From a virus: DNA of 64,000 bases. The position numbers and the translations under genes were made by a program. Of this stretch, positions 3,880 to 29,059 are shown piece after piece. Position 1 is the first letter of the stretch. Every line of letters starts with the position of its first letter. Where the stretch lies: positions 57,293 through 121,292 of the IMG/VR virus record IMGVR_UViG_3300018080_000121; one strand, 5' to 3'. The notes under the pieces are model-generated. The model saw only the letters and a list, made by a program, of their open reading frames with translations, had not been told where the DNA came from and ran no database searches.

Positions 3880-3887
3880 GAGGAGAT

Positions 3888-4481: not shown

Positions 4482-4818
4482 ATTTGAAATATCATTGTCA
4501 GCTCCATCATTGAATGATAATGATATGATTATGGACTTTTCAGAATTAAAAGAGATTGGTGAGAACATATTTGAAATGATGGATCACGCCACACTCTTTA
4601 ATCCCACAGATGAAAATCTTAAGTTCTTTCAAGAGCATGGATTCAAGACATTGACATTTCCGACGAAAGCGAATGAGGATCCGACTGCTGAGGTAACATG
4701 TAAGTGGGTGTACAGGATTTTTCGCGCGGGTTTGGACGAGCGAGGTCTTGAAGATGTTACTATTGACTTTGTTCGTATGTGGGAAAACAAGAACTCAATG
4801 GCGGAGTACAGTGAATAA
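4387..4818 (+). CDS. queD: 6-carboxy-5,6,7,8-tetrahydropterin synthase (QueD/PTPS)
   Basis: GHRL...CQNFHGHN, MDFSELK, MDHATL, PTAE, WENKNS; GTG start. Confidence 0.9.
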   Translation: MYRIRRIYHVTMGHRLSKHLGLCQNFHGHNVEFEISLSAPSLNDNDMIMDFSELKEIGENIFEMMDHATLFNPTDENLKFFQEHGFKTLTFPTKANEDPTAEVTCKWVYRIFRAGLDERGLEDVTIDFVRMWENKNSMAEYSE

Positions 4819-12188: not shown

Positions 12189-12438
12189 ATATGGCTTTCA
12201 CATATCTGAATACAATGGAGTTTGGAAGTGGACAGTAAGGGACCAACATGGCGTAGAACTTGCGATGAGTCCACGACATGGGTTTGCATCTGCTGATGCT
12301 GCAGTCGAAGCAGTGAAAGAACTCATAAATTTTATCATTGACAATGGGTTCAATATCCCTGTAACCGTGTACAAAGAAGGATTGGAGAATGATAGACAAA
12401 ATACAAATAGTGAGTTGGCTACTGACGCGGCGGTGTAA
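12166..12438 (+). CDS. YegP/DUF1508-like small protein
   Basis: WKWTVRDQHGVELAMSPRHGFASADAAVEAV fits the YegP pattern (w.w.l...ng..ia.s..y.s...a...i). Confidence 0.5.
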   Translation: MMGWRESRYGFHISEYNGVWKWTVRDQHGVELAMSPRHGFASADAAVEAVKELINFIIDNGFNIPVTVYKEGLENDRQNTNSELATDAAV

Positions 12439-13423
12439 CCTCAAATGTTCCTATTGTGCGATTACCAGGAACTATAAAGGAAAACCAGATCAGTATCCTG
12501 ATATGAAGCACTACTTGGAAAATGAGATGGACACCAAAACAGTGATTGAAATTCTCAGGAGAATAAAGGCTCATAACCCAGATGCATTCCATATTCTTTA
12601 TGGGGGCGAGCCGCTCTTGAGAAAAGATCTTCCGGAGATTGTGAACTTCTGTAACTCAGAAGATATCCATTACACAATCATAACCAATAACTCTGACGAG
12701 GTCCAACCATTACTGGAAAAACTCTTGGTTGAGACCGACTACGTAACTGGTTTGACATCTTCTGTAGATCCTCTAGTTGAATCTGAGGACCCTGAATCCG
12801 ACCGTTATAAGAAATGTGTCGCAGGGTTTAATCGGTTGGGAGAATACAGAGATGTCATTAAAGATGTCGTTGCTGAAATAACCGTTGATAATAACAACGT
12901 TGGACATCTTTATAATCTTGTTGCTATGCTCACAAAGATGGGAGTTAATAGCGATATAACTTTCATTGATATTGCGAAGAGTCCGTACTATGACTTTTCA
13001 AATGTTACAGATGAAGGACTGTTGGTTCCCCAATCGGATGAGTTGAGTCTACAATTTGATAAGATTATAGATGATAAACTCGACGTACATATGGCGGATA
13101 AACTACTCCCAGAAATCTTTAAAATCTTACCGTCGGATATGGATTGTGGTATTGAAAACAATATCCATAACATGACCATTGACGCAGATGGATCAGTAAG
13201 ATTATGTTTGAGAATTCGAGGAGTACAAACTCCAAAATTTAAAGCAATTGATCAGTTTTCACCCGATGGAAAACTTATGGCTGCATCTCTTAGAAAGTTC
13301 ATAAAGCATGATAAAGACATATACTGTAGGGGTTGTAATTGGACCTGTATGTTGATGTCACGGATGCTTTCAAGGAGAAAAGATACAGTCCAGAATCTAG
13401 TCCATCGGGATAGGAGGAAATGA
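12389..13423 (+). CDS. radical SAM enzyme with C-terminal SPASM/Twitch-type Cys motifs
   Basis: CNLKCSYC, GGEPLL, C...TIDADGSVRLC...CRGCNWTC. Confidence 0.88.
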   Translation: MIDKIQIVSWLLTRRCNLKCSYCAITRNYKGKPDQYPDMKHYLENEMDTKTVIEILRRIKAHNPDAFHILYGGEPLLRKDLPEIVNFCNSEDIHYTIITNNSDEVQPLLEKLLVETDYVTGLTSSVDPLVESEDPESDRYKKCVAGFNRLGEYRDVIKDVVAEITVDNNNVGHLYNLVAMLTKMGVNSDITFIDIAKSPYYDFSNVTDEGLLVPQSDELSLQFDKIIDDKLDVHMADKLLPEIFKILPSDMDCGIENNIHNMTIDADGSVRLCLRIRGVQTPKFKAIDQFSPDGKLMAASLRKFIKHDKDIYCRGCNWTCMLMSRMLSRRKDTVQNLVHRDRRK

Positions 13424-13728
13424 TGGCAGACAGAATAACCACTGCTCTCACTTTTCTAGATAGGATTAGAGAAGAGGGAGAAGTTACAATTAAGTTCCGA
13501 AAGAAGGATGGAGCCGAAAGGATTATGAGATGTACTTTGGATATGGAGAAAGTTCCAGTCGCACAAAGACCACAGTCGGTAAATCTCGCAAAGATCTTAC
13601 GGCTATTGAACACCCATAAGATCCTACATGTTTATGATATGGATGTGGGTGATTGGAGAAGTGTCCCATTCGATAGAACTGAATGGTTAGAGACGACAGA
13701 CCAAAGGAGGTACAAAATTGGCGGATAA
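13420..13728 (+). CDS. WYL_2/SH3-like phage protein
   Basis: VTIKFRKKDGAERIMRCTL...VYDMDVGDWRSVPFD pattern. Confidence 0.65.
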   Translation: MMADRITTALTFLDRIREEGEVTIKFRKKDGAERIMRCTLDMEKVPVAQRPQSVNLAKILRLLNTHKILHVYDMDVGDWRSVPFDRTEWLETTDQRRYKIGG

Positions 13729-13924
13729 AGTAGATGACCTGTCAATAGAAGTATTTACCAATGTTGACATTGTTCCATATCTAAAATACCATGCAGAGAA
13801 CAACCCAAATGTTTTAGATGTGGGTGCATTTGCGATAGCAGTTTTTAAAAATATGAAAGACTTCATAAAGGAGAATTACGGGGAGGTGATAGAGGATGGG
13901 AGTGTACCTGGACGAGATTCTTGA
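13718..13924 (+). CDS. hypothetical protein
   Basis: 68 aa; TTG start behind GGAGG. Confidence 0.5.
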   Translation: MADKVDDLSIEVFTNVDIVPYLKYHAENNPNVLDVGAFAIAVFKNMKDFIKENYGEVIEDGSVPGRDS

Positions 13925-14261
13925 ATCAGTGAAGAAGAATCCAGTGGCGGAACAACTGAGGATTATATGTGACAAGATTTTTGCTGAAGAGATCCATCAT
14001 CCGAAGTTATATAGAGGTCCACAAGGACCAAATATATTTCTATCTCTTCCAGCTGTTAAAGAAGAGACTGGAATGTGTGATACTCATTACGTTTGTCTAG
14101 AACGAGAAGCAATGAATAGGTTCATTGTTAGTCATTGGATCAAGGGAAAGAAATCAGAATCGCCTTTAAAAAGAGTCAAAGTATGGCCTGTTAGAGCAGA
14201 CACGTCAAAAAAGATTCTAAAGGAGTTTGGGGCGAAACTGTTATTTGTGAAAGGAGAATAG
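13896..14261 (+). CDS. hypothetical protein
   Basis: 121 aa behind GAGG. Confidence 0.55.
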   Translation: MGVYLDEILESVKKNPVAEQLRIICDKIFAEEIHHPKLYRGPQGPNIFLSLPAVKEETGMCDTHYVCLEREAMNRFIVSHWIKGKKSESPLKRVKVWPVRADTSKKILKEFGAKLLFVKGE

Positions 14262-14266
14262 AGATT

Positions 14267-16756
14267 ATGGAAGAGATTGTTATGAATCCATACTTTGCCA
14301 GCTTGGTAATCTCTGATGAATCAAGCGACACTTCAGACAAAACTAAAAAAACATTCACTCCATTTAAACGGCTTAAATTGATAGATACGCCGGACTTTTT
14401 TCGTGGAATGAATGGTACCCACATGGAGAGGGAAATTCTTCCGAGGAATTGCAGAATTGTACATGACCTTCCCAATACCAGTGAGAAAATAGTTGTTATT
14501 GAGGAAGAGCCGGGTGTCCGGAATCTGAGATTTGCTGTTGGATTCCAGGGGACTTTAGACTCGCTAAAAAATGCTGGTTATGATGATATGTACCAGTATC
14601 TCAGCGAAAATGTAAAGAGTAGAAATGGAGAATATACCTTGCAGGTGTCAATGCCATTTGTAGTAGTGGTTATGTTTATTCAAAACTACATTGCCACTTC
14701 AGTGCAAGTATTCTTTCGAATGCGACCCCTTACAAGTTATTCTGATTCTCTGTACTATGCAAACCTCCTCAACATTCCAGACAGTCAGTATATATGTCTT
14801 GGTAATCGACCCCCAAGTTATCGTGAACCAGATAATCTCTATGATGCTTGTACTATTGAGCTTGAAAGATTCTGGAACACAGCATATAACATGGATTACT
14901 ACCACAACTACAAGATGTATGAGCGGGATGTTCCGGAAGTCTGTAATCCGCTTGTGTGGCATTATAATACTGTGATTGATCCCATGTTTATCTACACAGT
15001 TCCGTGGATCATCTATCCTAAAACGATAGGTGAAACAATAGATGATATGGCGGGTGGTAGAACACAAGGAATCCCATCATACGACAAACTAAGGGAGATA
15101 TTCTATCGACCAATCAAAGCACAAACAAGACACAAAACCCACTATAAAAATACAGCTCAAGAGTTAGCTATTAAAAATAGTTACCTTTGTGTTGGGGATA
15201 ACATTACAATAGGAAAGAAAGAATACATTGTTGCATCTTTTGTCGGTACTCCTGGTCATAGACCTACGAGGGTAATCCTACAGGGTGCTGATGGGAAAAC
15301 GACAGAAGTATCCATTACACAAAAATTCAAAAATGAAATCCAGAAGCAGAGATCTGCATCGAAAGAAGTCAAGTCGGTTCAGATTGGTGATCAGAAGATC
15401 AGTACCAATGACTTGATTGTGATCAAGTCAAGATATGCTGGAAAGATTTTTAAGAAGGTACATGTAATTCGAGTCGCCAGAGATGGTAAAATAGAAGCAA
15501 GACTTGGTAGTGATTACTATCTTCTTGAGAATTTGGAATTCGATGTTGTGGATATGTCTAACGTTGAAGTTAACGGGATTAAGGTTGACGCAAATAAGAC
15601 CTATGTTATCCTGAAAGCGGATTATGGTCAAGGTCCTACGTTCCAAAAGTATGACGTAAAGCTTGACAGTTTTGATTCCAATGGGGCTAACATGAGAGCC
15701 TTGTTTAAGAATGTTATGACCGGAAGTAGGATTGCAATTGATCTAAATCCAACAGGTACGCCAGTATATAAGTTGTCGGATAGTAAAGACACTTATATAA
15801 CACCTCCTGTATTTAGATATGCCGACTCTCTTGTAACCAACTGGAAAGACGGTGGTGTTGATGGTTATGGTCTCATTCCTGGTGAAGGAATAGTGGCCTA
15901 CGATGGCGGTGGTTATTATAGAGATTATAAAAGGACTACCGCAAAGAGTAATATCCTGAGCGAGGATAAAACTGAGATTCATATTCCTAGCTTCGATGGA
16001 GATATTTACTTCAAAGTTGGGGATGCTGTAGTTCATGCGGACTGGAACAATCCTGAGAACATGTTGAAAGTCTGCACTATTGCTCTGTTTAAAGAGCAAC
16101 TTGGGTCGTTGTATATTGTCATGACGACTCTTGATGGAAAAGAAGTATTTGAAACCGAGTTCATTGATTTTGAACGAGGACGGATCAGACCTGGTACTGT
16201 CCGACACATTGTAGCAAAATGGGATAAATGGAAAGCTGGTGATAAACTTAGAGCAAAAGTTGGTCGTATTCCAGCATTTCCAAAGAAGGATGTCAACACA
16301 ATCGTTGGGTTCTTACCTGATACAGGTAGAGATATCCCTCAAATTTTGATGTCAAACGGGTGTACCCTCTGGATGGACGAAGAGACGATGAACAACTTTG
16401 AAGTCCTTCGTAGGGGAACAGCTGCTTGTGCAAAGCAGAAAAATGCTCCAATGCAACTGGACAAAATTAAGTGGCAACCGGGCGATCTGGTGGTAAGGGA
16501 TGGTTCGATTGGAATGATTAACCGGCATGAAGGAAGACGGTCCTTGAGAGTGACTGTTACTGAAAGGAGGGCAGGCTTTACGTACAATTATCCAACAAGG
16601 AAAAACTTAGTCAGGTATGGTTTCCTGATACCAAGACGGACGCAACAACATCAATACATGGGAACTGGATTTCCTGTATTTCCTAACTTCCATGGTTGGT
16701 ATACTGTTGCGGAAAGGAGTCCAATGCATGTATCGGAGGACGTGAACAATGTTTAA
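14267..16756 (+). CDS. prokaryotic E2 family D (PRTRC protein B-like) domain fused to a long beta-rich C-terminal region
   Basis: LPRNCR...VVIEEEPGVRNL...SMPFVVVVMF...VFFRMRPL...LYYANLLNIPDSQYICLGN with candidate catalytic Cys; adjacent to JAB/ThiF/Ubl. Confidence 0.65.
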   Translation: MEEIVMNPYFASLVISDESSDTSDKTKKTFTPFKRLKLIDTPDFFRGMNGTHMEREILPRNCRIVHDLPNTSEKIVVIEEEPGVRNLRFAVGFQGTLDSLKNAGYDDMYQYLSENVKSRNGEYTLQVSMPFVVVVMFIQNYIATSVQVFFRMRPLTSYSDSLYYANLLNIPDSQYICLGNRPPSYREPDNLYDACTIELERFWNTAYNMDYYHNYKMYERDVPEVCNPLVWHYNTVIDPMFIYTVPWIIYPKTIGETIDDMAGGRTQGIPSYDKLREIFYRPIKAQTRHKTHYKNTAQELAIKNSYLCVGDNITIGKKEYIVASFVGTPGHRPTRVILQGADGKTTEVSITQKFKNEIQKQRSASKEVKSVQIGDQKISTNDLIVIKSRYAGKIFKKVHVIRVARDGKIEARLGSDYYLLENLEFDVVDMSNVEVNGIKVDANKTYVILKADYGQGPTFQKYDVKLDSFDSNGANMRALFKNVMTGSRIAIDLNPTGTPVYKLSDSKDTYITPPVFRYADSLVTNWKDGGVDGYGLIPGEGIVAYDGGGYYRDYKRTTAKSNILSEDKTEIHIPSFDGDIYFKVGDAVVHADWNNPENMLKVCTIALFKEQLGSLYIVMTTLDGKEVFETEFIDFERGRIRPGTVRHIVAKWDKWKAGDKLRAKVGRIPAFPKKDVNTIVGFLPDTGRDIPQILMSNGCTLWMDEETMNNFEVLRRGTAACAKQKNAPMQLDKIKWQPGDLVVRDGSIGMINRHEGRRSLRVTVTERRAGFTYNYPTRKNLVRYGFLIPRRTQQHQYMGTGFPVFPNFHGWYTVAERSPMHVSEDVNNV

Positions 16757-17927
16757 TGTATGGATCAACGACGGTACAACTGAAATGCCTACTGACGATA
16801 TTCTATATATCGTAGCGAAAGATGGGATATTCTTAAAGAAGAAATTAGGTTTCTTTGAGAGTATTGCGAAAGTGGACCAAATGTCTATTTTGAAAGATGT
16901 AGATCCTTATGCGACGATGGACATTAAACCAATACCAAGAAAGAAATTTGCTCAAATCATTTCATTCTATCGTGAAGTGGCTAAGCAATTTTCTGGTGAG
17001 GCGATGACCATTTTACATTATAACCCGAAACGAAAAAGGTTTAGAATTGAAATCCCTGACCAGGAAGTTTCGGGTGGTGGTGTTGGATGGGAAAGTTTGG
17101 AAAGCTACAAGGGTTATGTTCGAATCGGTTCAATTCATAGCCACAATCATATGTCCGCTTTCCACTCAGGAACGGATGATAACGACGAATTCAATTGGGA
17201 TGGAATTCATATCACGATTGGAAAAGTCGGGAATCCAAATGTTGACATTTCAGCGTCATTAGTGTTTAACGGAACCAGGTTCATGATTGACCCATGTGAT
17301 TATGTAGAAGACTTGGAAATGGTAGAATCCGAGGCTTCATATGTAGGTCCAAAGACCTATAAATGGGAAGGTAATAAGCTGGTACCAGCAAACGACGCTG
17401 CTAAGAAAACAGTTACATTAGGATATCGAATCAAAAATGAAAGGGCTAAGGAAAGGAAATTCCCTTCTACCTGGTTGAAGAATGTGAGTAAATGGATGCC
17501 GAGAACTCAACCAAATCAGGGAATTTATTCAGGTGGTGTCAATGGTATTGTTGGACCGGCTCGACAACCATGGCAGCATAATCCACATGGAAATCCTTAT
17601 TGGGGAAGGTTCCATCAAGGTCGTCATAATGGTCGACAAGCTCTCTTGAGACGACAATTTAATACAGGAAATAATCATGATCAGGTCGCTGCTCAGGAAG
17701 GAGTCAGTTTTGACACAGCTTATGAACCCGGGGATCCAATGGATTGGGATCCATGTGAAAACTGTCCGTATTGCAACTATAAATCCAACCAGTTGCTTAT
17801 GGATCTTATTAACCAGTTGGATTTGGATGAGGACCAGTTAGCACAGCTTGGGCTTACTGAAGAAGAAGATGACAATCCATTAGCGGGTGAATACGATGGA
17901 GGTGAAGTGTATGTTGGGGGACCGTAG
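16749..17927 (+). CDS. JAB/JAMM metallo-isopeptidase (PRTRC protein A-like)
   Basis: EAM...QEVSGGGV...IGSIHSHNHMSAFHSGTDDNDE (E, HxH, S, D). Confidence 0.88.
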   Translation: MFNVWINDGTTEMPTDDILYIVAKDGIFLKKKLGFFESIAKVDQMSILKDVDPYATMDIKPIPRKKFAQIISFYREVAKQFSGEAMTILHYNPKRKRFRIEIPDQEVSGGGVGWESLESYKGYVRIGSIHSHNHMSAFHSGTDDNDEFNWDGIHITIGKVGNPNVDISASLVFNGTRFMIDPCDYVEDLEMVESEASYVGPKTYKWEGNKLVPANDAAKKTVTLGYRIKNERAKERKFPSTWLKNVSKWMPRTQPNQGIYSGGVNGIVGPARQPWQHNPHGNPYWGRFHQGRHNGRQALLRRQFNTGNNHDQVAAQEGVSFDTAYEPGDPMDWDPCENCPYCNYKSNQLLMDLINQLDLDEDQLAQLGLTEEEDDNPLAGEYDGGEVYVGGP

Positions 17928-18606
17928 AATCAAAATTGTTGGATTGGGCGGAATCGGTTCTGCATTATGTGATAACCTATGCAGATTTCTAAACCATCAA
18001 CCCACCCGCTGTAGACTTGTACTAATTGATGGTGATGACTACGAGATTAAAAATAAAGCTCGCCAGTCATTTAATCAGTTGGGAAACAAGGCGAGGGTAA
18101 AATGTACAGAAATGAGATTGTCCCATGAGAATATCTCGTTTGACGATGTTGCTGAATATCTAACACCGTCAAATATTGGGGAGTACATTCAAGAAGATGA
18201 CGTTGTGTTTCTGTGTGTAGATAACCATAAAACGAGAAAAGTGGTTTCTGATCATGCAAAGACACTTGAAAACGTTATTGTGATTTCTGGTGGTAATGAA
18301 TACACAGACGGAAATGTGCAAATCTTTATTAGAGAAGGAGGTGAAAATAAAACACCGTCGTTGTCAGATTACCATCCGGAGATCGCCCACCCTGGTGATA
18401 AGTCACCAGATGAAATGAGCTGTGAAGAGTTGGCGAACTCTGAGCCACAATTGTTATTTGCAAATCTTTCTGTGGCTACAATTATGTGTTGGACTTTCTA
18501 CAATATTCTTGAAGGAAAGTTGGCGCAGAACAGCTCAGAAGTATATTTCGACATGTTGAAAATGAATACGCTAGCAAAACAACGAAAACCTAGAGCTCAA
18601 AAGTAA
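17911..18606 (+). CDS. ThiF/E1-like activating enzyme
   Basis: IVGLGGIG, LIDGD.YEIKNKARQ, FLCVDNHKTR, ISGGN, candidate catalytic MSCEE; ATG 17911 behind GGAGG. Confidence 0.9.
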   Translation: MLGDRRIKIVGLGGIGSALCDNLCRFLNHQPTRCRLVLIDGDDYEIKNKARQSFNQLGNKARVKCTEMRLSHENISFDDVAEYLTPSNIGEYIQEDDVVFLCVDNHKTRKVVSDHAKTLENVIVISGGNEYTDGNVQIFIREGGENKTPSLSDYHPEIAHPGDKSPDEMSCEELANSEPQLLFANLSVATIMCWTFYNILEGKLAQNSSEVYFDMLKMNTLAKQRKPRAQK

Positions 18607-18612
18607 GGAGGA

Positions 18613-19104
18613 TTGAAACAAATGGGTACATTTAAAAGAGAGACATTGGAAGCTAAGACGGTTGTGGAACTCAGGGACATTCTTCGCAAGAAACAAATTA
18701 AAGGGATGATGAAGAAACCCAAGAGACAAATTATCAATGCGATCATGGATTCCCAGAAGGGTGCGGTTCCTGCAGCTGCAGTGGCGAAACCTTCCAAAGC
18801 TTCTCCCAAGTCCACTGGACCGGTTACCAAAATGTCTCTGACAATGGACAGTGAATTGACGAAGCCTGGTGCTCGATTCGGTAACAGAACCAAGACGACC
18901 GTCCGTGTTTCCTGTGGTGCTTCTTCTGGTGACTTTCCGGTTTGCGGTAAGAGCGTCGGCGCTGTTGCGAACTTCCTGCGCGAAGTCCTCAATGTCGATA
19001 AGCTCGCTGAGGGTCTTGTCAACGGTGAAAAAGTCTCTGAGGACTATGTTCTCCGTGAAGGGGATACCCTCGAATACATCAAACCTGCTGGCCGCAAGGG
19101 CTAG
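18613..19104 (+). CDS. ubiquitin-like (beta-grasp) protein with N-terminal Rho_N/HeH-like helical domain; C-terminus GRKG
   Basis: VRVSCG...SVGAVANFLREVLNV...LVNGEKVSEDYVLREGDTLEYIKPAGRKG-stop; N-terminal KTVVELRDILRKKQIKG...KRQIINAI. Confidence 0.85.
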   Translation: MKQMGTFKRETLEAKTVVELRDILRKKQIKGMMKKPKRQIINAIMDSQKGAVPAAAVAKPSKASPKSTGPVTKMSLTMDSELTKPGARFGNRTKTTVRVSCGASSGDFPVCGKSVGAVANFLREVLNVDKLAEGLVNGEKVSEDYVLREGDTLEYIKPAGRKG

Positions 19105-19114
19105 AGCGTAGTTA

Positions 19115-19140
19115 GTGGGGGTGGGGAAACTCACCCCCAC
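19115..19140 (+). terminator. GC-rich stem-loop directly after the Ubl gene (terminator or transcript stabiliser)
   Basis: GTGGGGGTGGG-GAAA-CTCACCCCCAC: 11-bp stem with one G-U and a GNRA loop; no U-tract. Confidence 0.5.
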
Positions 19141-19157
19141 ATCCCGGAGGTGAAAAC

Positions 19158-19697
19158 ATGGAAGAAGAAGTTCGAGTGGTCGAGGAAACTGATGAGCACT
19201 ATTTAATTGAGAAGTTAGATGGATCAATGGTGAAGGCTTATAAGATTGACCAGCGAGATATTGTTGCGGCTCATATAGCTGGAGTTAATAAAATCGCAAA
19301 AGCTTTAGAACCAAGAGATGTAATGCATCTCGTTCATCTTATTGAAAATATTCTGAATTTTGAACCGACGATTTCAGAGTATTTGGATATGGCTACGAAT
19401 CTTGGTAATGTTATTGGTGACCTCTACGATAGAGTTGGAAATCCAAATCTTTTACATCATCCACATAAAAACATACACCCGGAATGTTATGGAACTGCAC
19501 AGACTCTTAGAGATGAATGTGTCAAGCTGCTAAAGTTATTGTGGGAGGTGTTAGAAGAGCAAGAGAGAGGAAATCGTATTGGCGACGTGAGATATAGTGT
19601 AGCTGAAATGACCAGGATAGTACTTTATGTTGCTAACCATCAAATTAAGTTCTCAAGACAAAGAGAGTGTACATATACGACAACAAAAATCTCTTGA
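19158..19697 (+). CDS. hypothetical protein inside the Ubl cassette
   Basis: GGAGG RBS; 179 aa, helical. Confidence 0.65.
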   Translation: MEEEVRVVEETDEHYLIEKLDGSMVKAYKIDQRDIVAAHIAGVNKIAKALEPRDVMHLVHLIENILNFEPTISEYLDMATNLGNVIGDLYDRVGNPNLLHHPHKNIHPECYGTAQTLRDECVKLLKLLWEVLEEQERGNRIGDVRYSVAEMTRIVLYVANHQIKFSRQRECTYTTTKIS

Positions 19698-19737
19698 TTT
19701 ATGAACCCGTTTATTATAGAAAGGGGTATTATGTGAA

Positions 19738-20628
19738 ATGGCGAATAGTATCGTTGTAATCGGGTTAGGCTCGCTGGGAGGTTTCTTTGCAGAAAATATC
19801 TCAAAGCTTGACGGGGTGAAACGCCTCATTCTTGTTGACCCGGATATTGTCGAGAAGAAAAATCTGAAAAATTCTATTTACAGAAAGAGAGATGTTGGAA
19901 AAGGAAAGGTTGATGCGCTTGCTGATATTCTAGAATTCAGTCTAGATGGGAGCATCGAAATCATAAAAATCTTTAAGGAGTTTAAGGAGGGAGAGACACA
20001 ACTACCAGAAGCAGATTTGGTGTTTGATTGTAGGGATGTTCTATGTAGCAGGGGTGGTTACATAGATGTGAAGATGTACATTTCTTTCCGAACGTTAGTC
20101 GTCGACTGTCAAAAACATGTTAATATTCCAAACACACGACGTGGAAGATATGTAGACCATGTTACCAAGAATGATATTCGAAATGCAGCATTTAACGCAT
20201 TTCTTCTAGTGTATAGTAAGAAGATTTATGATTTGATGCGACAACAGACAGTACATACAATCCAGTTGGACGATTATCGAGAAGGTGTAAACCAAAGTCT
20301 TGAGTTGGTACAGAGTAAAAATGACTTGGTATATGAAAGTCAGAATGGAGAAGAGAAATTAGTAAATCTCCATGAGAATCTAGTACCAATTCTTGAAGCC
20401 AATAAAAAACAGGATCTGAATGTGATTATTGGTGAAAAGCAAAATGTTTCACAAAAGTTAATGAAAATTCCATGTTCTGAGATGAGGGACCAATTCGACG
20501 TGATTAGGGTTTTCTCTGAGTTAGCAAGGAACATTCCATTGTCGTATGATAGGTATCTAATTCGAGTATTATATCTAAAGAAGGAAGGTATATATATCGA
20601 ATTGCTACCCAGCACAGGAGCTGCATAA
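19738..20628 (+). CDS. second ThiF/E1-like protein with C-terminal extension
   Basis: IVVIGLGSLGG, LVDPDIVEKKNLKNSIY, DVGKGKVDAL, VFDCRD. Confidence 0.8.
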   Translation: MANSIVVIGLGSLGGFFAENISKLDGVKRLILVDPDIVEKKNLKNSIYRKRDVGKGKVDALADILEFSLDGSIEIIKIFKEFKEGETQLPEADLVFDCRDVLCSRGGYIDVKMYISFRTLVVDCQKHVNIPNTRRGRYVDHVTKNDIRNAAFNAFLLVYSKKIYDLMRQQTVHTIQLDDYREGVNQSLELVQSKNDLVYESQNGEEKLVNLHENLVPILEANKKQDLNVIIGEKQNVSQKLMKIPCSEMRDQFDVIRVFSELARNIPLSYDRYLIRVLYLKKEGIYIELLPSTGAA

Positions 20629-20629
20629 A

Positions 20630-21043
20630 ATGGGAGAACAATTCACAGTTGAGGTGAATAGTCCGATAGTCCCTGTTTCACTTATCTGGAATCAACAACT
20701 TTATGAGATTGTCGGCGTTCACCCAAGTTATGTGATGAATAAATATACAGTACACGTCGACGACTCTAGAAACATTACGGAATTGTACATCTGGAACTCG
20801 TTCCACCCAAACGCAGGCAATGCAACCAATGAACAAGTTCCTATTTCACAACCGCCGAGAATGAGTAAGTTCTGTTTACCACCAGAGTTAATAGGAACTC
20901 ATTTTGAGCTTCCTGATACTACTTACTTTTTAGAGCAATTTGTTCTAAATCGGTGGTACCTTGATAATCCACATCACTATCCAAATCCTATCCATTACAA
21001 AACTGAACCAGACATAGGAGGGCAACATGTTGGGAGAATTTGA
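20630..21043 (+). CDS. putative E2/UBC-fold protein
   Basis: FHPNA...SKFCLP resembles the UBC HPN...C signature; directly follows the E1-like gene. Confidence 0.45.
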   Translation: MGEQFTVEVNSPIVPVSLIWNQQLYEIVGVHPSYVMNKYTVHVDDSRNITELYIWNSFHPNAGNATNEQVPISQPPRMSKFCLPPELIGTHFELPDTTYFLEQFVLNRWYLDNPHHYPNPIHYKTEPDIGGQHVGRI

Positions 21044-21321: not shown

Positions 21322-24033
21322 ATGCCATCTTTGTTAAACTATAACCAGTTCTGTGAAGAACTAAAAGAAGTTACAACAACAAAGATTATTGACAAGAAGA
21401 AGTTCCATGCTGAAGGTCTGTTCTCTGAACAGATCTTTGGTCCTGTTAAGAACTATACTTGTCAATGTGGGACATATTATGGAATCTCTGGAGCAGGTGG
21501 TACGTGTAAAGATTGTGGGGTCGACGTTGTAAATAGTAATGAACGACGTCGAAGATTTGCTAAAATTGTATTACCAATACCAGTGGTCAATCCAGTCTTT
21601 TATGATCTGTTGATTGACCTTGGTGGTAATATGATTAAAGATGCGATCACCCAATTGCTTAGAGATGAAAAAAGTGTCCTATATTGGCATGAGGATGAAG
21701 AAGAATTTAGGATCACAGATGAGGAAAATATAGAAGCTGGTACCGAGATTTTTAGAGGTACCGCTGCTGTCAAAGAAATGATCCAAGTTCTTGCAGATAA
21801 ACTTGCGGAAGAAGACGCTGAGGGATGGGATATAGTTCTCGATAATATCGATCAATTGGTTATAGAATATGTCATTGTATTACCTCCGGACCTAAGACCT
21901 GCATCTAGAGGTGTTACACAAAATGACCAAGTGGTTGATAAAATCAATAGATTCTATACTCAGATCCTAACAAAGAAAGAAGCTATGAGGGATACAATTT
22001 TGGATGTCAGACGAGATCCAACTTTGTATTACAGCTATGCAAAACAACTCCAGAAGGATGTCAATGAGTTATACACGCATATTCTTGATAAGTTGTCAAA
22101 AAAGGAAGGGTTGATTCGCGGAAATATTCTTGGGAAGAGAATAGATTTCTCGGGTCGAGCTGTCATTGTGCCATCACCGACACTCAATTTTGATGAGTGC
22201 TCACTTCCGTATGCTATGTTTCTAGAATTATTCAAACTGAGAATTGCTAAAAAGTTAATTCAGTTGGAAAAATTCAAACTTCTGAATGACGCCATTGACT
22301 TTGTAGATGAATGTATAGAGCTGAAAATTCCGGTTCTATTTAAGATCTGTGAAGAGATGGCGGAAGGTGAAGTATGTTTGTTAAATAGACAACCCTCGCT
22401 CCACAAATTAAGCATGTTGGGATACTACATTAAAGTATCTTTGGATAATGTAATTAAGATACACCCATTGTCATGTCCACCATTCAATGCTGACTTTGAT
22501 GGTGACCAGATGGCGGTATACATCCCAATCACACCGGAGTCAAAACAAGAAGTAATTGATAAACTCCTGGTTACTAGAAATTTAAGTAACCCATCAAATG
22601 GAAGTTTGTCAACTGTTCCAAGCCAAGATATGGTTCTTGGAGTTTACTCATTAACAACTGGATACTTCAAAGAATTTAGTGCCTTGATAGATTGTAAAGG
22701 AGAGCAAATAACTGAAGGTATGAAACTTTTCAACGATTGCTTACCTGAAGATTATCCTCTTGTAAATGAGTCTGTTGGTGGAAAACGTTTGGTAGAAATA
22801 CTGAACGATATAAACACAAGATACGAACCTGAAGAAGTAATACGAGTCCTTGATAACATTAAATTTCTTGGGTTTAAGTACTCAACATTATTTGGTGCAA
22901 CTCTTTCTCTGAACCATTGTTATATGGAAGAGGCGGTGAACATCAGGGAAGGGTTATATGAGAGTGACTCGATTGTTGAACAGGTGAGTAAAGTATCAGG
23001 CGATGAAACAACTCAATTACTGAAAGACAACTTCCATTATTCTTATATGATTGAGTCTGGAGCAAGAGGTAGTTGGGATCAGGTTCGACAAATAGTCTTA
23101 ACCAGAGGGTTTATCTCAAACTTTAATGGCGAGATTATTACAGAACCTATCAAGAATAGTTTCATCAGAGGATTAACCCAAAAAGAGTTCTTCAACTCTA
23201 CGTATGGTAGTAGAAAAGGTCTCCTTGACGTTGCGTTGAACACTGGAACTTCAGGTTACCTTTCTAGAAAATTAATCTTCGCTTGCGCAAATCTCCAGAT
23301 AGATCAAAGTTTGGATGATTGCGGAACCCAAGACTTTCTTGATGTGTATGTTGATACACCAAAGAAAGCAAAAATGTTGGTTGGTAAATGGATGAAGACT
23401 GATGGTGGACTCATGTTAATTACCGAAGACAATTGTATGACTTTGGTCAGCGAGTTGATCCAAGTTAGGAGTCCAATCTTATGTCAATCGGAAAGATTAT
23501 GTTGTAAATGTTACGGTGAGTTGTATAAGACTCTTGATACAAGATTTGTAGGAGTTATAGCAGCGCAATCCCTTGGAGAATGTAATACTCAGTTAGTATT
23601 GAGAACATTCCATACGAGTGGTGTAGCACAGCTAAATAAGGACAACGATGCAGAAGATATGAAGCAACAAGATATTGTTAGTGATCTATCAACTGTATCC
23701 AGACTCCTACACCAGTTCAATAAGAGTACAAAATATGATGAGTTGACTCATAATCTTTTCACAAATTACAACCATCGACGTACAATACATCATACACATT
23801 TTGAGTGTGTTGTGTCACAGCTTATGTGGAGTGGAGTTCAAAAGTGGAGATTGGTAAAAGATCGAGACAAAGCAAAGCTTGAATTCCACAGTGTCCAGAC
23901 AGTTCCATCTTATGAATCGTGGTTGATGGGACTGGCGTTTTCAAATCCAAAGAAACACATCATTAAAGGTATCTTACATTCTGGTTTGTATAAGGGTGTA
24001 ATGGACAAGATCTTATGTGGTGAAAGCGTATAA
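21322..24033 (+). CDS. rpoC: phage multisubunit RNA polymerase beta'-like subunit
   Basis: EGLFSEQIFGP, Zn-finger CQCG..CKDC, GKRIDFSGRAVIVP, LNRQPSLH, catalytic NADFDGDQM, PSQDMVLG, SGARGS, NTGTSGYLSRKL, trigger loop TQLVLRTFHTSG. Confidence 0.96.
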   Translation: MPSLLNYNQFCEELKEVTTTKIIDKKKFHAEGLFSEQIFGPVKNYTCQCGTYYGISGAGGTCKDCGVDVVNSNERRRRFAKIVLPIPVVNPVFYDLLIDLGGNMIKDAITQLLRDEKSVLYWHEDEEEFRITDEENIEAGTEIFRGTAAVKEMIQVLADKLAEEDAEGWDIVLDNIDQLVIEYVIVLPPDLRPASRGVTQNDQVVDKINRFYTQILTKKEAMRDTILDVRRDPTLYYSYAKQLQKDVNELYTHILDKLSKKEGLIRGNILGKRIDFSGRAVIVPSPTLNFDECSLPYAMFLELFKLRIAKKLIQLEKFKLLNDAIDFVDECIELKIPVLFKICEEMAEGEVCLLNRQPSLHKLSMLGYYIKVSLDNVIKIHPLSCPPFNADFDGDQMAVYIPITPESKQEVIDKLLVTRNLSNPSNGSLSTVPSQDMVLGVYSLTTGYFKEFSALIDCKGEQITEGMKLFNDCLPEDYPLVNESVGGKRLVEILNDINTRYEPEEVIRVLDNIKFLGFKYSTLFGATLSLNHCYMEEAVNIREGLYESDSIVEQVSKVSGDETTQLLKDNFHYSYMIESGARGSWDQVRQIVLTRGFISNFNGEIITEPIKNSFIRGLTQKEFFNSTYGSRKGLLDVALNTGTSGYLSRKLIFACANLQIDQSLDDCGTQDFLDVYVDTPKKAKMLVGKWMKTDGGLMLITEDNCMTLVSELIQVRSPILCQSERLCCKCYGELYKTLDTRFVGVIAAQSLGECNTQLVLRTFHTSGVAQLNKDNDAEDMKQQDIVSDLSTVSRLLHQFNKSTKYDELTHNLFTNYNHRRTIHHTHFECVVSQLMWSGVQKWRLVKDRDKAKLEFHSVQTVPSYESWLMGLAFSNPKKHIIKGILHSGLYKGVMDKILCGESV

Positions 24034-24049
24034 CGAAGGAGGTTGGATC

Positions 24050-27000
24050 TTGAACATCATTAATCCGCACTACAAATTGCGTGAACAGAACATTTTCTCC
24101 ATAAGAGACCAAGAATATGCAGCGCTCCTAGAGACAGTAAGACAAATTCTAATCCCGGCTGAAGAGCTGGGATTTGAACTTACTGACTGTAGGATAAAAG
24201 ATTCGAGGTTCTCAACTGGAGAGATTTCTAGAACTTTAAAACAGAACCTAGTCATTCGATTACAAAAGGGAGCGTCAAAGATTGACCTCTCAATGCAAAT
24301 TCCAAAGCTCGTTGATGGGAATTATATCATCATAAACGGGAGGAAGAAAATTCCCCAATTTCAATTGTTTGATATTCCAGTTGTTACAAGGGGAAAGAGT
24401 ATCAAAATCAGGACTAATGTAGCGACAATTATGATCATTGAGCAGAAGGAAGCTCCCTTTACATACATCAGTATTCTTGGGAGAAAAGTCCCGTTGTTTC
24501 TGGTTATCTTTGGTTACTATGGAATTGAGCCTGTTGCGCAGAGGTTTAATCTTCCAACACTTCAAGTAAGCGATACCAACCTGGACACAATGTATGACCG
24601 ACTGCTTTATGACATGAAAATGTTCTATGATAGTTCTCGGGGTACTACACAAGATGATATCATCAAAGAAATTGGTAGATATTACTCAAAGTACAATGCT
24701 AGAGTTAAGGGTGAAGATTTGATGTATGCTCTTGACTTAATCCTTGATACAGATGTAATGTCTGCTTGCTTCTTTAGGACCGGGTCCATTCTAGAAGAGA
24801 TTCTAGATGTAATGCAAAACGGTCCATTGGATGATACGTTAATTACAAACAAGAGGATTCGATGTTTTGAGTATGTCATCCTCGCAAAGGTCTCTAAAGC
24901 TGTATTTGATCTCTGTATGTCAAATCGTACAGCTAGACAACCGAAATTCAATGTAAACTCAACTGCGATTTTATCTGAGTGTAATGTATCGGATATAGTC
25001 CAGTTTGACTTTTCTATTAATCCAATCGACGAGCTGACCAAACTAAGTAGAACTAGTCTTGTAGGTCCTGGTGGTTTTAACAGACAAAATGTACCAGAGC
25101 ATCTAAGAGATATTATGCCTACAATGTTTGGACGGTTATGTCCAGTTGACACACCTGACCGAGATAATTGTGGAGTTCTCCAGAACTTAGTTCCAAATGC
25201 AATTTTAGATGACAATTTAAAGTTTTCTGAAGAGTATTTGGAGAAACAACCAATCTCAATAGCGGTGTCAATGGTTCCATTTCTTGAGCACGATGACCAA
25301 ACTCGACTCCAGATGTCAGCTTCACAGATGCGTCAAAGTATTATGTTAAAGAACTTCGACCAACCAATGATCCAGTCTGGTTGTGAAGGGTTGTATACAG
25401 ACAAGACACAATTTGTAAAGGTAGCAAAGAAAAATGGAGAAGTCGTACATCTCGATCACAACTATCTCATCTTGCTTTATGATGACAAGACCGTAGATAT
25501 ATTCGATATCTCATATCGAAAGATTTACATCTCAAACCTTGATGTATACAAAGTTTATGTACAACAAGGGGATAAAGTCAAAGCAGGAGATATTCTGGCT
25601 GAGAGTTATTTTACAGATAATGGAAAGATTAACATTGGTAAAAACCTGTTAACTGCTGTTGCGGAATACTATGGGTATAACTATGAGGATGGAATTGTCC
25701 TATCTGATAGAGTTGTAAAAGAGGGAATGTTCACATCTGTACATTTCATAGATTTATCCTTTACCCTTCCGCCAAATAAAGTTCTCCTAAGTCTTTCACA
25801 AGATGAGTATAAACCCCTTCCAGGTGTAAGGGAAAGGGTTTCTAAAGGAGAACCATATATGATTACCAAGGAAATGCCTTCTATACAGATGGATTACAAA
25901 AGCATTTTTAAGAAGGAACGTCCGGTATTAGCTAAATCGGATATGATTATCACCGAGGTAAACATGTTTGCAAACTCATGGAATAAAGAAATACCACAGT
26001 TTGATAAATGGATGGAAAAGAAGTTAACGCAACAGCAAAAGCAAGAAGAGAAAATTGCTAACATCGTTGGGGAATATCTTTCCAAAGAAGATACAACTAG
26101 ATTCGTAAGGGATCATGATCTTGCGAAATATGGAAATATTGGAAAGTATAAATTCAAAGGTGAATACATTAACGGTGTCCGAGTAGAGATGTTTGGAATC
26201 TTCTTCCGACCAATCCAAATCGGTGACAAAATTGGAAATCGTCATGGGAATAAGGGAGTTGTATCTACTATTGTACCACAAGAGAAAATGCCACAACTAC
26301 CTGATGGGCGACACGTAGATATTTGTATTAATCCGCTTGGTATTATAAGCCGGATGAATATTGGGCAAGTTTATGAACTCCATTTAGGCATGGCTCTATA
26401 TGACTTGAGGGAAACTCTGAAAGCAATTCTTGATGGACGGGAAAAGAATTCAGCAGAATTAGATGACGCAAAACGTCAAGAACTTGCAAAAAGATTTCTC
26501 CTTGGATTTATTGAGTTGGTTGATAAAACTGACGAACATTGGTATTATGACCAATATGTAGAACATCTTCCAGAAACTATCGACGAGAAGTTTATTGATA
26601 ACATTGTTCTCCTACAACCTCCATTTGAGTCGATGAATATGTCTGAGATGAAGGAAGCATTGGAGTACACAGGCACAAAGTTTGAGTACCCACTATTTGA
26701 ACCGATGGCTGGACAGAACATTCAGAATGAGATTGCTGTGGGTTATTTGTACTTCTTTAAGATGGTACACATTGCTGAGACTCGTCTTGCTGCAAGAGGA
26801 ATTGGATCCTACACAAGGAAGACACTTCAACCTTTAGCAGGAAGAAAGAATCGAGGCGGTCAGAGAATGGGTGAAATGGAAACAGGGTGTCTCATTGGAC
26901 ATGACGCTCCAGTTAACTTAGCAGAATGTCTGACAACCAAGTCAGATTGTACTGATAAGAAGAACCAATATATCCGAGATGAAATTGACACGGGTATGAA

Positions 27001-27082
27001 ACTGGAAGAGGAAGGTGACAATGTAGCAGAATCTGTCAAACTTCTGAAAGCGTATCTTACGACAATAGGAGTAAGGATGTGA
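24050..27082 (+). CDS. rpoB: phage multisubunit RNA polymerase beta-like subunit
   Basis: [80 protein letters not shown]; TTG start at 24050 behind GGAGG. Confidence 0.96.
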
Positions 27083-27910: not shown

Positions 27911-28287
27911 TTGAAATGTTTCAGCATACAACAGAACAGCTTGAACGTGATTATGACTCTGTTAAGACAGCAATAGTTCTTGCGTTGGTTAACGAGGGTT
28001 ATATGACACAAGATGAGGCCGACGAATGGTGCACAACACATACAATCATTCTTCGAAAGAAAAGCATCTTTCGTACCTTTACAAATAGGTTTAAGAAAAA
28101 GAAGGGTGTAGAAAAAGGACAATATATGCTAGTTGTAAAACTAGTAGAACCAAAGGAGGAAAAGGATGCAGAAAGACATAACGGAGGGAACGATGAAGCT
28201 TCCGGACATACAAACCTCAAAACCAAAGATTCAAAGACCTCTTCGTCAAGTGGGAGTGGAGAGTGTTGTGGTACCATTTTCCCTTGA
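27907..28287 (+). CDS. hypothetical protein
   Basis: 126 aa; GTGAAATGA coupling to coaD. Confidence 0.55.
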   Translation: MIEMFQHTTEQLERDYDSVKTAIVLALVNEGYMTQDEADEWCTTHTIILRKKSIFRTFTNRFKKKKGVEKGQYMLVVKLVEPKEEKDAERHNGGNDEASGHTNLKTKDSKTSSSSGSGECCGTIFP

Positions 28288-29059
28288 ACTGAAATCTGGG
28301 GGATTTAGATCGATGGCGGCGAATGTTTCTATGAGAACAAACCTTGACTCTGACGTCAAAGGAATCTCAATGTCGAGGTTGATTCGGACTCTTCGTAAAT
28401 ATTTAGATCTGCCCTTGAAGAAAAAATTGATAAGACAGATCTTATCAGACTTAAATAGGAATGTGGGTACAACGAAAAGTTATATGAGATTTGATTTTGA
28501 ACTTCCACTTCCTAGAAAGTCGGCGAAGTCAGATTACCAATTCCCAATCTTTCATAAGTGTATGTTTGAAGGTCATTTAGTTCCGGACGTGGATAGCTTT
28601 GATGGAGATAAGTTCCGATTCTTTCAAGGTGTAACAGTCCAATATGCGAGTTACTGTCCATGTTCTGCTGAGTTATGTGCAGATTTAAACTCAAGGGGAA
28701 GAGTAGGTTTTCCACATGCTCAGAGGTCCTTCGCTCATATCGTTACTGAGAAAGAGATGAATGGTGATCACTACGTTTGGTTGGAGGATATAATTGATTG
28801 CGTAACTAAAGCGATCCCGACGATTCCATACCCAATAATCAAACGTGAAGATGAACAAGAAATAGCAAGGATCGCAGGTGCAAATCCGATCTTCGTGGAA
28901 GATGCTATCCGAGCAATAAGTGAGCAATTAGACGCTCTGCCGGGTGTTCGCGACTGGATAGTTAAGTGTATTCATGAGGAAAGTATTCACACCAGCGAAG
29001 CAATTGCGGTTAATTGGAAAGGTATAGACGGTGGGTTTAATTACCGATCCTTTCTTTAG
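28166..29059 (+). CDS. folE2: GTP cyclohydrolase IB (FolE2)
   Basis: PDIQ...QVGV, KGISMSRL, SYCPCS, HAQRS, KREDE, NPIFVEDAIR, HEESIH. Confidence 0.92.
   Translation: MQKDITEGTMKLPDIQTSKPKIQRPLRQVGVESVVVPFSLELKSGGFRSMAANVSMRTNLDSDVKGISMSRLIRTLRKYLDLPLKKKLIRQILSDLNRNVGTTKSYMRFDFELPLPRKSAKSDYQFPIFHKCMFEGHLVPDVDSFDGDKFRFFQGVTVQYASYCPCSAELCADLNSRGRVGFPHAQRSFAHIVTEKEMNGDHYVWLEDIIDCVTKAIPTIPYPIIKREDEQEIARIAGANPIFVEDAIRAISEQLDALPGVRDWIVKCIHEESIHTSEAIAVNWKGIDGGFNYRSFL

Follow-up and report, generated by a model that had tools for sequence, protein, structure and literature searches.

A candidate ubiquitin-like conjugation module in the core region of a clade of uncultivated jumbo phages

To our knowledge, the only setting in which conjugation of ubiquitin-like proteins (Ubls) has hitherto been demonstrated in prokaryotes is host anti-phage immunity, in CBASS (an anti-phage system that signals through cyclic oligonucleotides, with Cap2/Cap3) and in the Bil and Bub systems. 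We know of no function for the operons of the 6d or PRTRC type, which are located on plasmids, integrative and conjugative elements and islands. As described by Iyer, Burroughs and Aravind, type 6d operons comprise a Ubl, a JAB peptidase with an N-terminal domain, a standalone activating enzyme (E1), a conjugating enzyme (E2) devoid of the histidine of the canonical HPN motif, and an alpha-helical protein (PMC1779556). The present analysis concerns seven genes at positions 14267-21043 of a 64,000-nt stretch (hereafter, the window) of a 121-kb IMG/VR viral contig, IMGVR_UViG_3300018080_000121, whose CheckV completeness is 39%. We consider it likely that they represent a phage-encoded Ubl conjugation system forming a core syntenic module of a clade of uncultivated jumbo phages; all of the mechanistic steps proposed below are drawn from sequence, predicted structures and gene context. 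The literature searched, which included a 2021 survey of jumbo phages and whose coverage is incomplete, yielded no description of a phage-encoded E1/E2/JAB/Ubl cascade.

The seven genes follow one another on the + strand, separated by overlaps or by gaps of 1-50 nt, and all were found where an initial annotation, made from the sequence alone, had placed them. They encode, in order, an E2-like protein of 829 residues (E2big; 14267..16756), a JAMM/JAB metallopeptidase of 392 residues (JAB; 16749..17927), a ThiF-type E1 (E1a; 17911..18606), a Ubl (18622..19104), a 179-residue protein (19158..19697), a second ThiF-like protein of 296 residues (E1b; 19738..20628) and a minimal E2 candidate of 137 residues (p137; 20630..21043). 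The translational coupling proposed for this run is borne out by overlapping or abutting starts and by ribosome-binding sites lying within the preceding genes. The JAB gene opens at ATG 16749, 8 nt before the end of the E2big gene and with GGAGG in front of it, and p137 starts at ATG 20630, 1 nt past the stop codon of E1b. ATG 17911, also preceded by GGAGG and situated 17 nt within the JAB gene, is the likely start of E1a, GTG 17887 marking only the maximum extent of the open reading frame (E1a residue numbers nonetheless count from this codon); similarly, the Ubl likely begins at ATG 18622, behind AAGGAGG, rather than at TTG 18613.

The distribution of this arrangement was surveyed in IMG/VR using two independent baits, the E2big family, which retrieved 42 loci, and the RNA polymerase beta' subunit, which retrieved 56 loci with enough upstream sequence. 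The order common to the 42 loci is SbcC, radical SAM enzyme, WYL_2 protein, a 121-residue protein, E2big, JAB, E1a, Ubl, (the 179-residue protein), E1b, p137, RNA polymerase beta' and RNA polymerase beta, and p137 is found in all but one of them. Synteny in related phages, which the initial annotation had suggested surveying, was no less consistent from the polymerase side: all six core genes are present in 53 of the 56 loci, and E1a and E1b co-occur in 55. Since more than 50 independent metagenomic contigs repeat this order while E2big has diverged to 26-36% identity over the 42 loci, the observation lies far beyond chance, and the module is near-universal, syntenic and close to core in a large and diverse clade of uncultivated jumbo phages. 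The exceptions are few. Locus L061 is missing p137; L122 (IMGVR_UViG_3300005573_000857) passes from SbcC, radical SAM and WYL_2 genes to E1b and p137 only, followed by RNA polymerase beta', neither E2big nor the Ubl being found elsewhere on this 92-kb contig, which is 29% complete; and L127 (IMGVR_UViG_3300029268_000036; 14% complete) goes from SbcC and WYL_2 to RNA polymerase beta' with neither the module nor the radical SAM gene. The latter two look like natural deletion variants. The gene of the 179-residue protein, noted in the initial annotation as part of the cassette, is present here and in only 13 of the 42 E2big-baited and 8 of the 56 polymerase-baited loci; it is an accessory, sub-clade-restricted component, and its product has no match in Pfam, PHROG, NCBIfam or PADLOC.

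Beyond IMG/VR, a profile of E2big searched against 1.84 billion cluster representatives (50% identity) retrieved 2152 matches at E<=1e-3, 350 of them with E<=1e-30; full-length proteins predominate among the best 150. By nucleotide, protein and tblastn comparison with 50,697 phage records, neither the region nor E2big, the Ubl or p137 had a match, and E1a and JAB matched 7-9 distant records only. Four contigs from metagenome-assembled genomes in GTDB (L045-L048; GC 27-35%) display the same synteny; their bins are labelled Heimdallarchaeota, Thermoplasmatales (twice) and 'uncultured bacterium', labels that are contradictory, probably reflect mis-binning and were disregarded as host assignments, although they are the sole pointer to a host.

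E2big is the most unusual protein of the set. Its AlphaFold2 (AF2) model, built on a 35-sequence alignment (mean predicted local distance difference test score, pLDDT, 83.7), suggests three parts: a small beta domain at the N-terminus; at residues ~52-260 (nt 14420-15046), a domain of the UBC fold; and, over residues ~300-829, tandem SH3/KOW/Tudor/BAH-like barrels. The middle domain is modelled with a helix (94-115), four strands (122-164), a loop carrying Cys177 and three helices (191-204, 213-221 and 228-243), which is the order of the UBC fold. Upon comparison of the models with 48,161 PDB representatives by VIA-align, the best E2 match to residues 52-260 was the Leishmania protein 1yf9 (Z 5.1, root-mean-square deviation [rmsd] 5.8, 126 residues aligned), with Pex4 (Z 4.9), UBC9 (Z 4.9), the CBASS E2 8hsb (Z 4.7), Cap2 7to3 (Z 4.6), UbcH10, the UEV domain of Tsg101 and the URD domain of FANCL also matched; at least 10 of the top 50 matches are chains of the E2/UEV/RWD type (Z 4.5-5.1, 100-129 residues aligned, rmsd 3.6-5.9). 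The UBC fold found for E2big thus comes at modest Z, and from a model rather than an experimental structure. Two residues stand out in the domain: Asn169 (nt 14771-14773) and Cys177 (codon 14795..14797), the cysteine of the 'ICLG' motif singled out in the initial annotation and the candidate catalytic residue, are invariant in 65 of 65 homologues; in the window protein, their context reads N-I-x5-I-C-L-G. They are 8 residues apart, which we take to be the Asn-to-Cys spacing of the HPN motif of eukaryotic E2s. At the family level, the Pfam model Prok-E2_D (PF14460) is matched by 31 of 35 E2big homologues at E<=0.1 (best 3.6e-6), which makes E2big a Prok-E2_D homologue, albeit one beyond the curated boundary of that family. 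A sequence-profile search of the PDB with E2big returned nothing useful.

For the barrel region, Foldseek ranks the KOW arrays of Spt5 first (E 6e-7) and also matches UBE2O (7un6), at E 6.6e-4. E2big resembles UBE2O in carrying a UBC domain and tandem SH3-like barrels in one chain; unlike in UBE2O, the barrels of E2big are C-terminal, so that the order is reversed, and the two share no sequence similarity, which makes the analogy an architectural one only.

The candidate eraser and the first E1 are better defined by sequence. JAB consists of an N-terminal extension, the peptidase domain and a variable C-terminal tail, with CxxC pairs in longer homologues. Its JAMM motif (E84, H130-x-H132-x7-S140-x2-D143), recognized from the outset as HSH...S..D, is intact and invariant in 73 of 73 homologues, and the protein matches PRTRC_A (E 4.9e-11) in a nearly full-length alignment (residues 20-176) that takes in the N-terminal extension. 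E1a matches Pfam ThiF over residues 11-227 (70.8 bits against a threshold of 28.1; E 1.3e-19) and PRTRC_ThiF from end to end (E 6.2e-11). The GxGxxG and MSC motifs already noticed in this protein belong to a set of active-site residues, namely G19/G21/G24, D48, R59-Q60, D112 and Cys179 ('EMSCEE'; nt 18421-18423), that is invariant in 73 of 73 homologues. From its location 67 residues past D112, Cys179 is probably the thioester cysteine.

The presumptive tag is a two-domain protein. Counted from TTG 18613, its reading frame of 163 residues comprises a Rho_N/HeH domain (~12-48), an Ala/Lys/Pro-rich linker and a candidate beta-grasp domain (~91-163), and terminates in ...KPAGRKG-stop. The beta-grasp domain ending GRKG-stop had been proposed in the initial annotation; the C-terminus reads as proposed, and the domain is indicated by an ESM Atlas model of residues 91-162, which matches a ThiS cluster (template-modelling score 0.79, by target) and SUMO/Rad60 clusters, together with sub-threshold profile matches. 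Among 35 Ubl homologues, Rho_N is matched by 27 (best 1.1e-8), TGS by 28, ThiS by 24 and Ub-Mut7C by 6, the latter three families always sub-threshold. A predicted beta-grasp fold is in this way found together with a conserved C-terminal glycine. An alternative assignment as a forkhead-associated (FHA) domain, based on a match to Dun1 (E 0.0045-0.018) that amounts to a shared 'NG..V...L..GD' pattern, was rejected in view of the central helix and the ThiS/TGS/Ub-Mut7C matches. PDB profile searches gave nothing useful for the Ubl, whether in full or restricted to its C-terminal domain. PHROGs offered only a marginal match for the Ubl (phrog_2250, E 0.0097), none for E2big, JAB or p137 and, for the two E1s, families with no assigned function only.

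The C-termini of the Ubl family are informative as to its possible use. Nearly all orthologues display [KR]-[PQ]-A-G-x-K-G at or near their end, two truncated or aberrant-looking sequences excepted. Thirty-six distinct sequences stop at the glycine of G-[RK]-K-G and a dozen more at that of a variant G-x-K-G, while some 16 homologues carry one added Cys and a few carry 1-5 other added residues. In one relative (L030:14419-15378; IMGVR_UViG_3300033146_002768), two HeH-linker-beta-grasp units are joined head to tail, each ending in KPAGRKG, in what is, by analogy, a polyubiquitin-like precursor. Since the forms with an added Cys, a longer tail or a second unit would need a peptidase to cut after the glycine and free its carboxylate for use, they argue for peptidase processing and for a role of the C-terminal glycine; Type II BilA similarly has a conserved glycine with additional residues after it (PMC10557695). 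In a sub-clade (L006:8283-8723, L007:9600-9962 and L011:9528-9965), an additional gene just 5' of E2big encodes a protein in which a HeH/Rho_N domain resembling the one in the Ubl precedes a tail that is acidic and rich in Pro and Glu, in place of a beta-grasp domain.

How, then, does the locus compare with 6d/PRTRC operons? Both are made of standalone small proteins and share a His-less E2 of the Prok-E2_D type, a JAB extended at its N-terminus and a tag whose C-terminal glycine is conserved. Unlike 6d/PRTRC operons, the module is phage-borne, its E2 is fused to ~570 residues of barrels, its tag is fused to a HeH domain, and it includes an additional E1-like protein and a mini-E2 with a canonical HPN motif. 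The initial proposal that the gene set matches PRTRC did not hold up: the NCBIfam equivalog cut-offs (TIGR03734-03741) are missed by a wide margin (PRTRC_A, 42.6 against 101.8 bits; PRTRC_ThiF, 42.1 against 144.75 bits), PRTRC_B matches 8 of 35 homologues, and does so weakly (0.0065 at best), and the PRTRC C, D and E models have no match in the window Ubl, the 179-residue protein or p137. As first noted for the window, no ParB partner is visible, ParB_N not being found in the 121-kb contig, which is 39% complete. On sequence grounds, we regard the phage module as a distant relative of the PRTRC/6d operons, the nearest described kind, and not as a member of them.

The ThiS-like tag and ThiF-like E1s raise the alternative of a sulfur-carrier or small-molecule/peptide adenylation module, in which the tag would be thiocarboxylated, or a peptide modified in the manner of MccB or PaaA, with DNA or tRNA thio-modification or a cofactor as the product, perhaps tied to neighboring radical SAM and FolE2 genes. 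The best named matches of the E1s are indeed ThiF and MoeB, with MccB and PaaA in addition for E1b, the tag matches ThiS, and a radical SAM gene and a FolE2 gene lie 1 kb upstream and 7 kb downstream, respectively. We nevertheless find this explanation very unlikely. The module contains no rhodanese, cysteine desulfurase or sulfurtransferase, and the E1s of E2-containing operons are noted never to carry a rhodanese (PMC1779556). It co-conserves a JAMM peptidase and two Asn/Cys proteins modelled with a UBC-like fold, and thiocarboxylate chemistry has no use for a pair of Cys-bearing E2s; these two E2 candidates and the JAB, with no sulfur-transfer domain beside them, argue against a biosynthetic role of the ThiS/MoaD type. 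The tag, for its part, bears 90 residues of HeH domain and linker, unlike minimal sulfur carriers, and has a polyubiquitin-like tandem form. Nor is the linkage to the radical SAM gene strict: L127 is devoid of both this gene and the module, but in L122 the radical SAM gene is present and the first cascade absent.

The last two genes of the module have no counterpart in 6d/PRTRC operons; the second ThiF and the HPN...C protein reported in the initial annotation are both present. E1b exceeds the Pfam ThiF threshold (51.7 against 28.1 bits; E 8.4e-14) over residues 4-104 only, and is composed of a Rossmann half of the adenylation type (residues 1-~120) and a region of ~175 residues with no detectable homologue. 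Profile comparison with the PDB retrieved MoeB (1.2e-12) as well as MccB, ThiF, PaaA, Cap2 and UBA5. All 79 homologues keep G9/G11/G14, D34, K57 and D97; no loop Cys is invariant among them. The C-terminus, E-L-[LI]-P-E-T-G-A-A, is highly conserved (T293 in 69, G294 in 75 and A296 in 77 of 79). With the C-terminal domain, a PDB profile search gave nothing useful and an ESM Atlas search (residues 120-296) only unnamed clusters, at 0.82; hhalign against the Ubl was not significant, and we do not claim a beta-grasp domain at this end of E1b.

The HPN motif of p137 occupies residues 59-61 (nt 20804-20812) and is followed by Cys82 (nt 20873-20875). H59 and C82 are invariant in 76 of 76 homologues, P60 and N61 each being conserved in 75, and most of these proteins read HPNA-DPxTGEFC, with the Cys 9 residues past the Asn. 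The AF2 model (mean pLDDT 85.7) is without helix alpha1 and the last two helices of an E2; 25 of its top 28 VIA-align matches are E2s or E2-fold proteins, including 1yrv (Z 4.5, rmsd 4.1, 96 residues aligned, 17% identity), UbcH7, Ubc8, UbcH10, BubB (9eav_D) and I215L of African swine fever virus. The sole PDB match by sequence profile is again the E2 1yrv (E 0.4), with HPN..C aligned to HPNVDPHTGQPC of 1yrv. Scans of Pfam, PHROG, NCBIfam and PADLOC returned no match. The initial annotation had made its proposal conditional on UBC folds in the products of the genes starting at 14267 and 20630, and both AF2 models turned out UBC-like, with modest Z. E2big and p137 are not claimed to be close paralogues, hhalign between them not being significant.

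The coexistence of two E1-like proteins could alternatively be explained by a single cascade with a heterodimeric E1, E1b being a dead partner of E1a in the way of APPBP1 or SAE1, and both E2s being charged with the same Ubl. ThiF-family enzymes are obligate dimers, the E1a and E1b genes travel together in nearly all loci (55 of 56), and E1b has neither the Arg finger nor an invariant loop Cys, both of which E1a has. Conversely, the GxGxxG motif, ribose-binding Asp, Lys57 and Mg-binding Asp97 of E1b, invariant in all 79 homologues, are lost in the inactive eukaryotic partners; the 92-kb contig of L122 has E1b and p137 without E1a, Ubl, JAB or E2big; and it is p137, rather than E1a, that is translationally coupled to E1b. 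On balance, a heterodimeric E1 seems to us unlikely.

The enzymology of the module also overlaps with that of the three defense systems. BilABCD operons likewise comprise a Ubl, an E1, an E2 and a JAB, and their Ubls may be tandem or multi-domain and have a conserved glycine after which, in many homologues, come extra residues that have to be trimmed off (PMC10557695). Several domains (IAD+AAD+CYS) make up the Bil E1, and a Cys/His pair is found in the Bil E2, whereas the phage proteins are E1s of ThiF size (231-296 residues) and Asn-Cys E2s; Bil operons, moreover, reside in host defense islands, the phage module in a phage core region. None of the BilA, BilB and BilC models of PADLOC matched the seven proteins, which therefore do not qualify as BilABCD. 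With Type II CBASS the module shares E1, E2 and JAB chemistry, Cap2 7to3 and 8hsb being among the structural matches of E2big and E1b matching the Cap2-type PADLOC model at 2e-11; unlike Type II CBASS, it has no E1-E2 fusion and possesses a dedicated beta-grasp tag, and the CD-NTase models of PADLOC found no match among the seven proteins, so that it does not qualify as Type II CBASS either. Bub has its chemistry, not its architecture, in common with the phage module. A further precedent comes from phages themselves, the TAPI and TAPK (JAB+NlpC/P60) proteins of lambda and T1 pairing a beta-grasp protein that has a conserved glycine with a JAB (PMC1779556); these have no E1 or E2 and belong to the tail module, whereas the genes described here lie in a replication/transcription region.

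Such kinship invites the suggestion of a counter-defense kit with no cascade of its own, whose enzymes would disturb the Ubl-based immunity of the host, be it CBASS Cap2/Cap3, Bil or Bub. JAB might, for instance, free phage proteins of host conjugates or de-prime cGAS-like enzymes, while the host Ubl might be sequestered or mis-charged by the E1- and E2-like proteins. E1a and E1b do match the PADLOC E1-E2 (Cap2-type) and BilD models at 1e-6 to 2e-11 and 6A-MBL cap2_3 at 2.9e-8, and peptidases of the JAB/Cap3 type undo such conjugation in bacteria (PMC10097602, PMC10557695). These PADLOC matches, however, cover the generic Rossmann half only (that to BilD, at 2.4e-6, is confined to residues 14-123), and a tag with precursor forms and an invariant C-terminal glycine would be needless for pure interference. 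Six genes fixed in order beside core genes over a deep clade are also unlike anti-defense genes, which are typically sporadic and fast-moving; near-universal synteny in a replication/transcription region is more in keeping with a core phage function than with a mobile counter-defense set. We accordingly judge a kit of this sort to be improbable, with the reservation that a counter-defense purpose is compatible with a working cascade and that this alternative is about role more than mechanism.

Relatives of part of the module exist in cultured phages. Triads of E2_D, JAB and ThiF genes in the same order occur in Salmonella phage Arash (OQ632216.1, gp248c-gp246c; L052), Vibrio phages D69 (3179-5942; L051), D181 and D148, and Bacillus phages vB_BceM_WH1 (gp214-216; L050) and Edson, where they are unannotated as such and labelled 'hypothetical' or 'structural'; Bacillus phage KLEB27-3 has a ThiF match only. 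The triads share with the phage module the motif 'P-x-N..x..[IM]C.G' in the E2 and, in WH1, 'EMSC[AE]E' in the E1, and Arash, like the clade studied here, has unsplit RNA polymerase beta and beta' subunits. Their E2s, at ~230-250 residues, are without barrels, unlike E2big, and tblastn revealed no homologue of the Ubl, of a barrel-bearing E2big or of p137 in the Arash, Vibrio and Bacillus triad phages. All three triad proteins of Arash were detected by liquid chromatography-tandem mass spectrometry in purified particles, with which, as the authors remark, abundant non-structural proteins may co-purify (PMC10585845). A side observation concerns WH1, in which an SPFH/Band-7 protein is encoded at L050:6848-7921, ~1 kb and two genes 3' of the ThiF gene; the window encodes another at 43359-44792, and their joint occurrence may be a coincidence.

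From these elements we propose the following sequence of events for the conjugation system. The Ubl would be ready-made in this phage, since it ends in glycine, whereas the precursors observed in relatives would be trimmed by the JAMM peptidase after G-x-K-G. E1a, with the active site described above, would bind ATP-Mg, adenylate the terminal glycine and probably load the Ubl onto Cys179. The Ubl would then pass to Cys177 of E2big, a candidate acceptor by predicted fold and alignment, and from there to lysines of target proteins; the barrels of E2big may serve as a built-in binder of substrates or scaffolds, so that the protein would be, like UBE2O, a hybrid of E2 and E3. The same JAB could remove the tag. 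E1b and p137 would constitute a second arm, in which E1b may pass an adenylated C-terminus straight to p137; we treat this arm as separable because L122 keeps these two genes only. As to targets, the HeH domain on the tag, the KOW-like barrels on the E2 and the abutment of the module on the RNA polymerase genes lead us to suggest, with low confidence, DNA- or transcription-associated proteins of the phage or its host.

A number of points weigh against this reading. The Z scores of E2big (<=5.1, for an 829-residue predicted model) and of p137 (<=4.5) are under the comfort line of VIA-align, at ~8, and Foldseek searches of the PDB and BFVD with p137 gave no match at E<=0.001. E2big has Leu, Pro or Thr at the position of the His of HPN, although E2s of the '6d' type are likewise His-less (PMC1779556). 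Of the profile searches recommended in the initial annotation, ThiF came out over threshold for both E1s, but Prok-E2_D (13 bits, E 0.085, against a gathering threshold of 25 for E2big) and Prok-JAB (22.4 bits, E 1.2e-4, against a cut-off of 25) stayed under threshold for the window proteins. The window Ubl similarly falls under the Pfam ThiS threshold, its beta-grasp fold resting on an ESMFold model of global pLDDT 0.61 and on the sub-threshold Pfam matches. Aligned with MoeB, E1b is without the R-Q Arg finger and so may be inactive. Helix alpha1, which p137 is without, is the E1- and E3-binding element of canonical E2s. The module is missing from one to three relatives and may thus be non-essential. 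The conjugation steps are built on sequence, models and context, and the proposal as to targets is pure inference from context, tandem small barrels being common and adjacency to RNA polymerase genes being a matter of clade-wide synteny. Taken together, the observations of the initial annotation are confirmed and its interpretation is partly supported.

The genomic setting of the module is that of a large phage. The window also encodes topoisomerase II subunits, a helicase, SbcCD-like proteins and a T4-type large terminase, and the module is followed, at 21322-27082, by genes for bacterial-type, unsplit RNA polymerase subunits in the order beta' (903 residues) and beta (1021 residues), whose identity is only ~28% to the subunits of Rhizobium, Yersinia and Acinetobacter phages, against 52-67% within the clade. 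Because related contigs reach 277 kb, it is reasonable to call the source element a jumbo phage, as the initial annotation did. Directly 5' of E2big, on the + strand, lies the gene of the conserved 121-residue protein (13896..14261), found at this position in 50 of the 56 polymerase-anchored loci and in nearly all E2big-baited ones; its product is a possible seventh member of the module. This gene and that of a WYL_2/Sm-like SH3 barrel protein (13420-13728) are kept directly 5' of the module in nearly all relatives and may share an operon with it. Further upstream, the radical SAM enzyme (12389-13423) has a weak QueE-like PHROG match (1.6e-6), and a FolE2-type GTP cyclohydrolase I is encoded downstream, at 28166-29059 (5.6e-57); by sequence, the two could be part of a 7-deazaguanine DNA-modification pathway.

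A more elaborate version of the proposal, which we put forward as speculation and think rather unlikely in its entirety, combines two orthogonal arms, HeH-Ubl tagging and E1b self-conjugation, with a possible link to archaeal hosts. In the first arm, E1a, E2big and JAB would tether or mark DNA- and transcription-associated proteins on nucleic acid during cell takeover. In the second, E1b would combine an E1 with a Ubl-like C-terminal domain of its own, whose highly conserved tail, PETGAA, would undergo activation, perhaps once its Ala residues had been trimmed off, and E1b itself would be the moiety conjugated through p137, by analogy with the C-terminus of the cGAS-like enzyme of CBASS. Self-conjugation of this kind would account for the relative that keeps only E1b and p137. 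Were the hosts really archaeal, a virus-borne E2 with an HPN-Cys site of the eukaryotic type would bear on the pre-eukaryotic spread of the ubiquitin machinery.

The significance of the conjugation system proposed here lies in its placing on the virus side, as a complete set of writer, eraser and tag and in hundreds of metagenomic lineages (the 350 E2big clusters at E<=1e-30), the same chemistry that hosts use against phages. If it works, it would mean that phages use protein tagging in their own programme, as eukaryotic giant viruses do, and would bring to light an E2/E3 hybrid of new architecture together with a minimal E2 of the HPN-Cys kind. It would also provide the orphan machinery of the 6d/PRTRC type with a testable biological context, and the triads of Arash, D69 and WH1 make at least the core enzymology accessible to testing in laboratory hosts.

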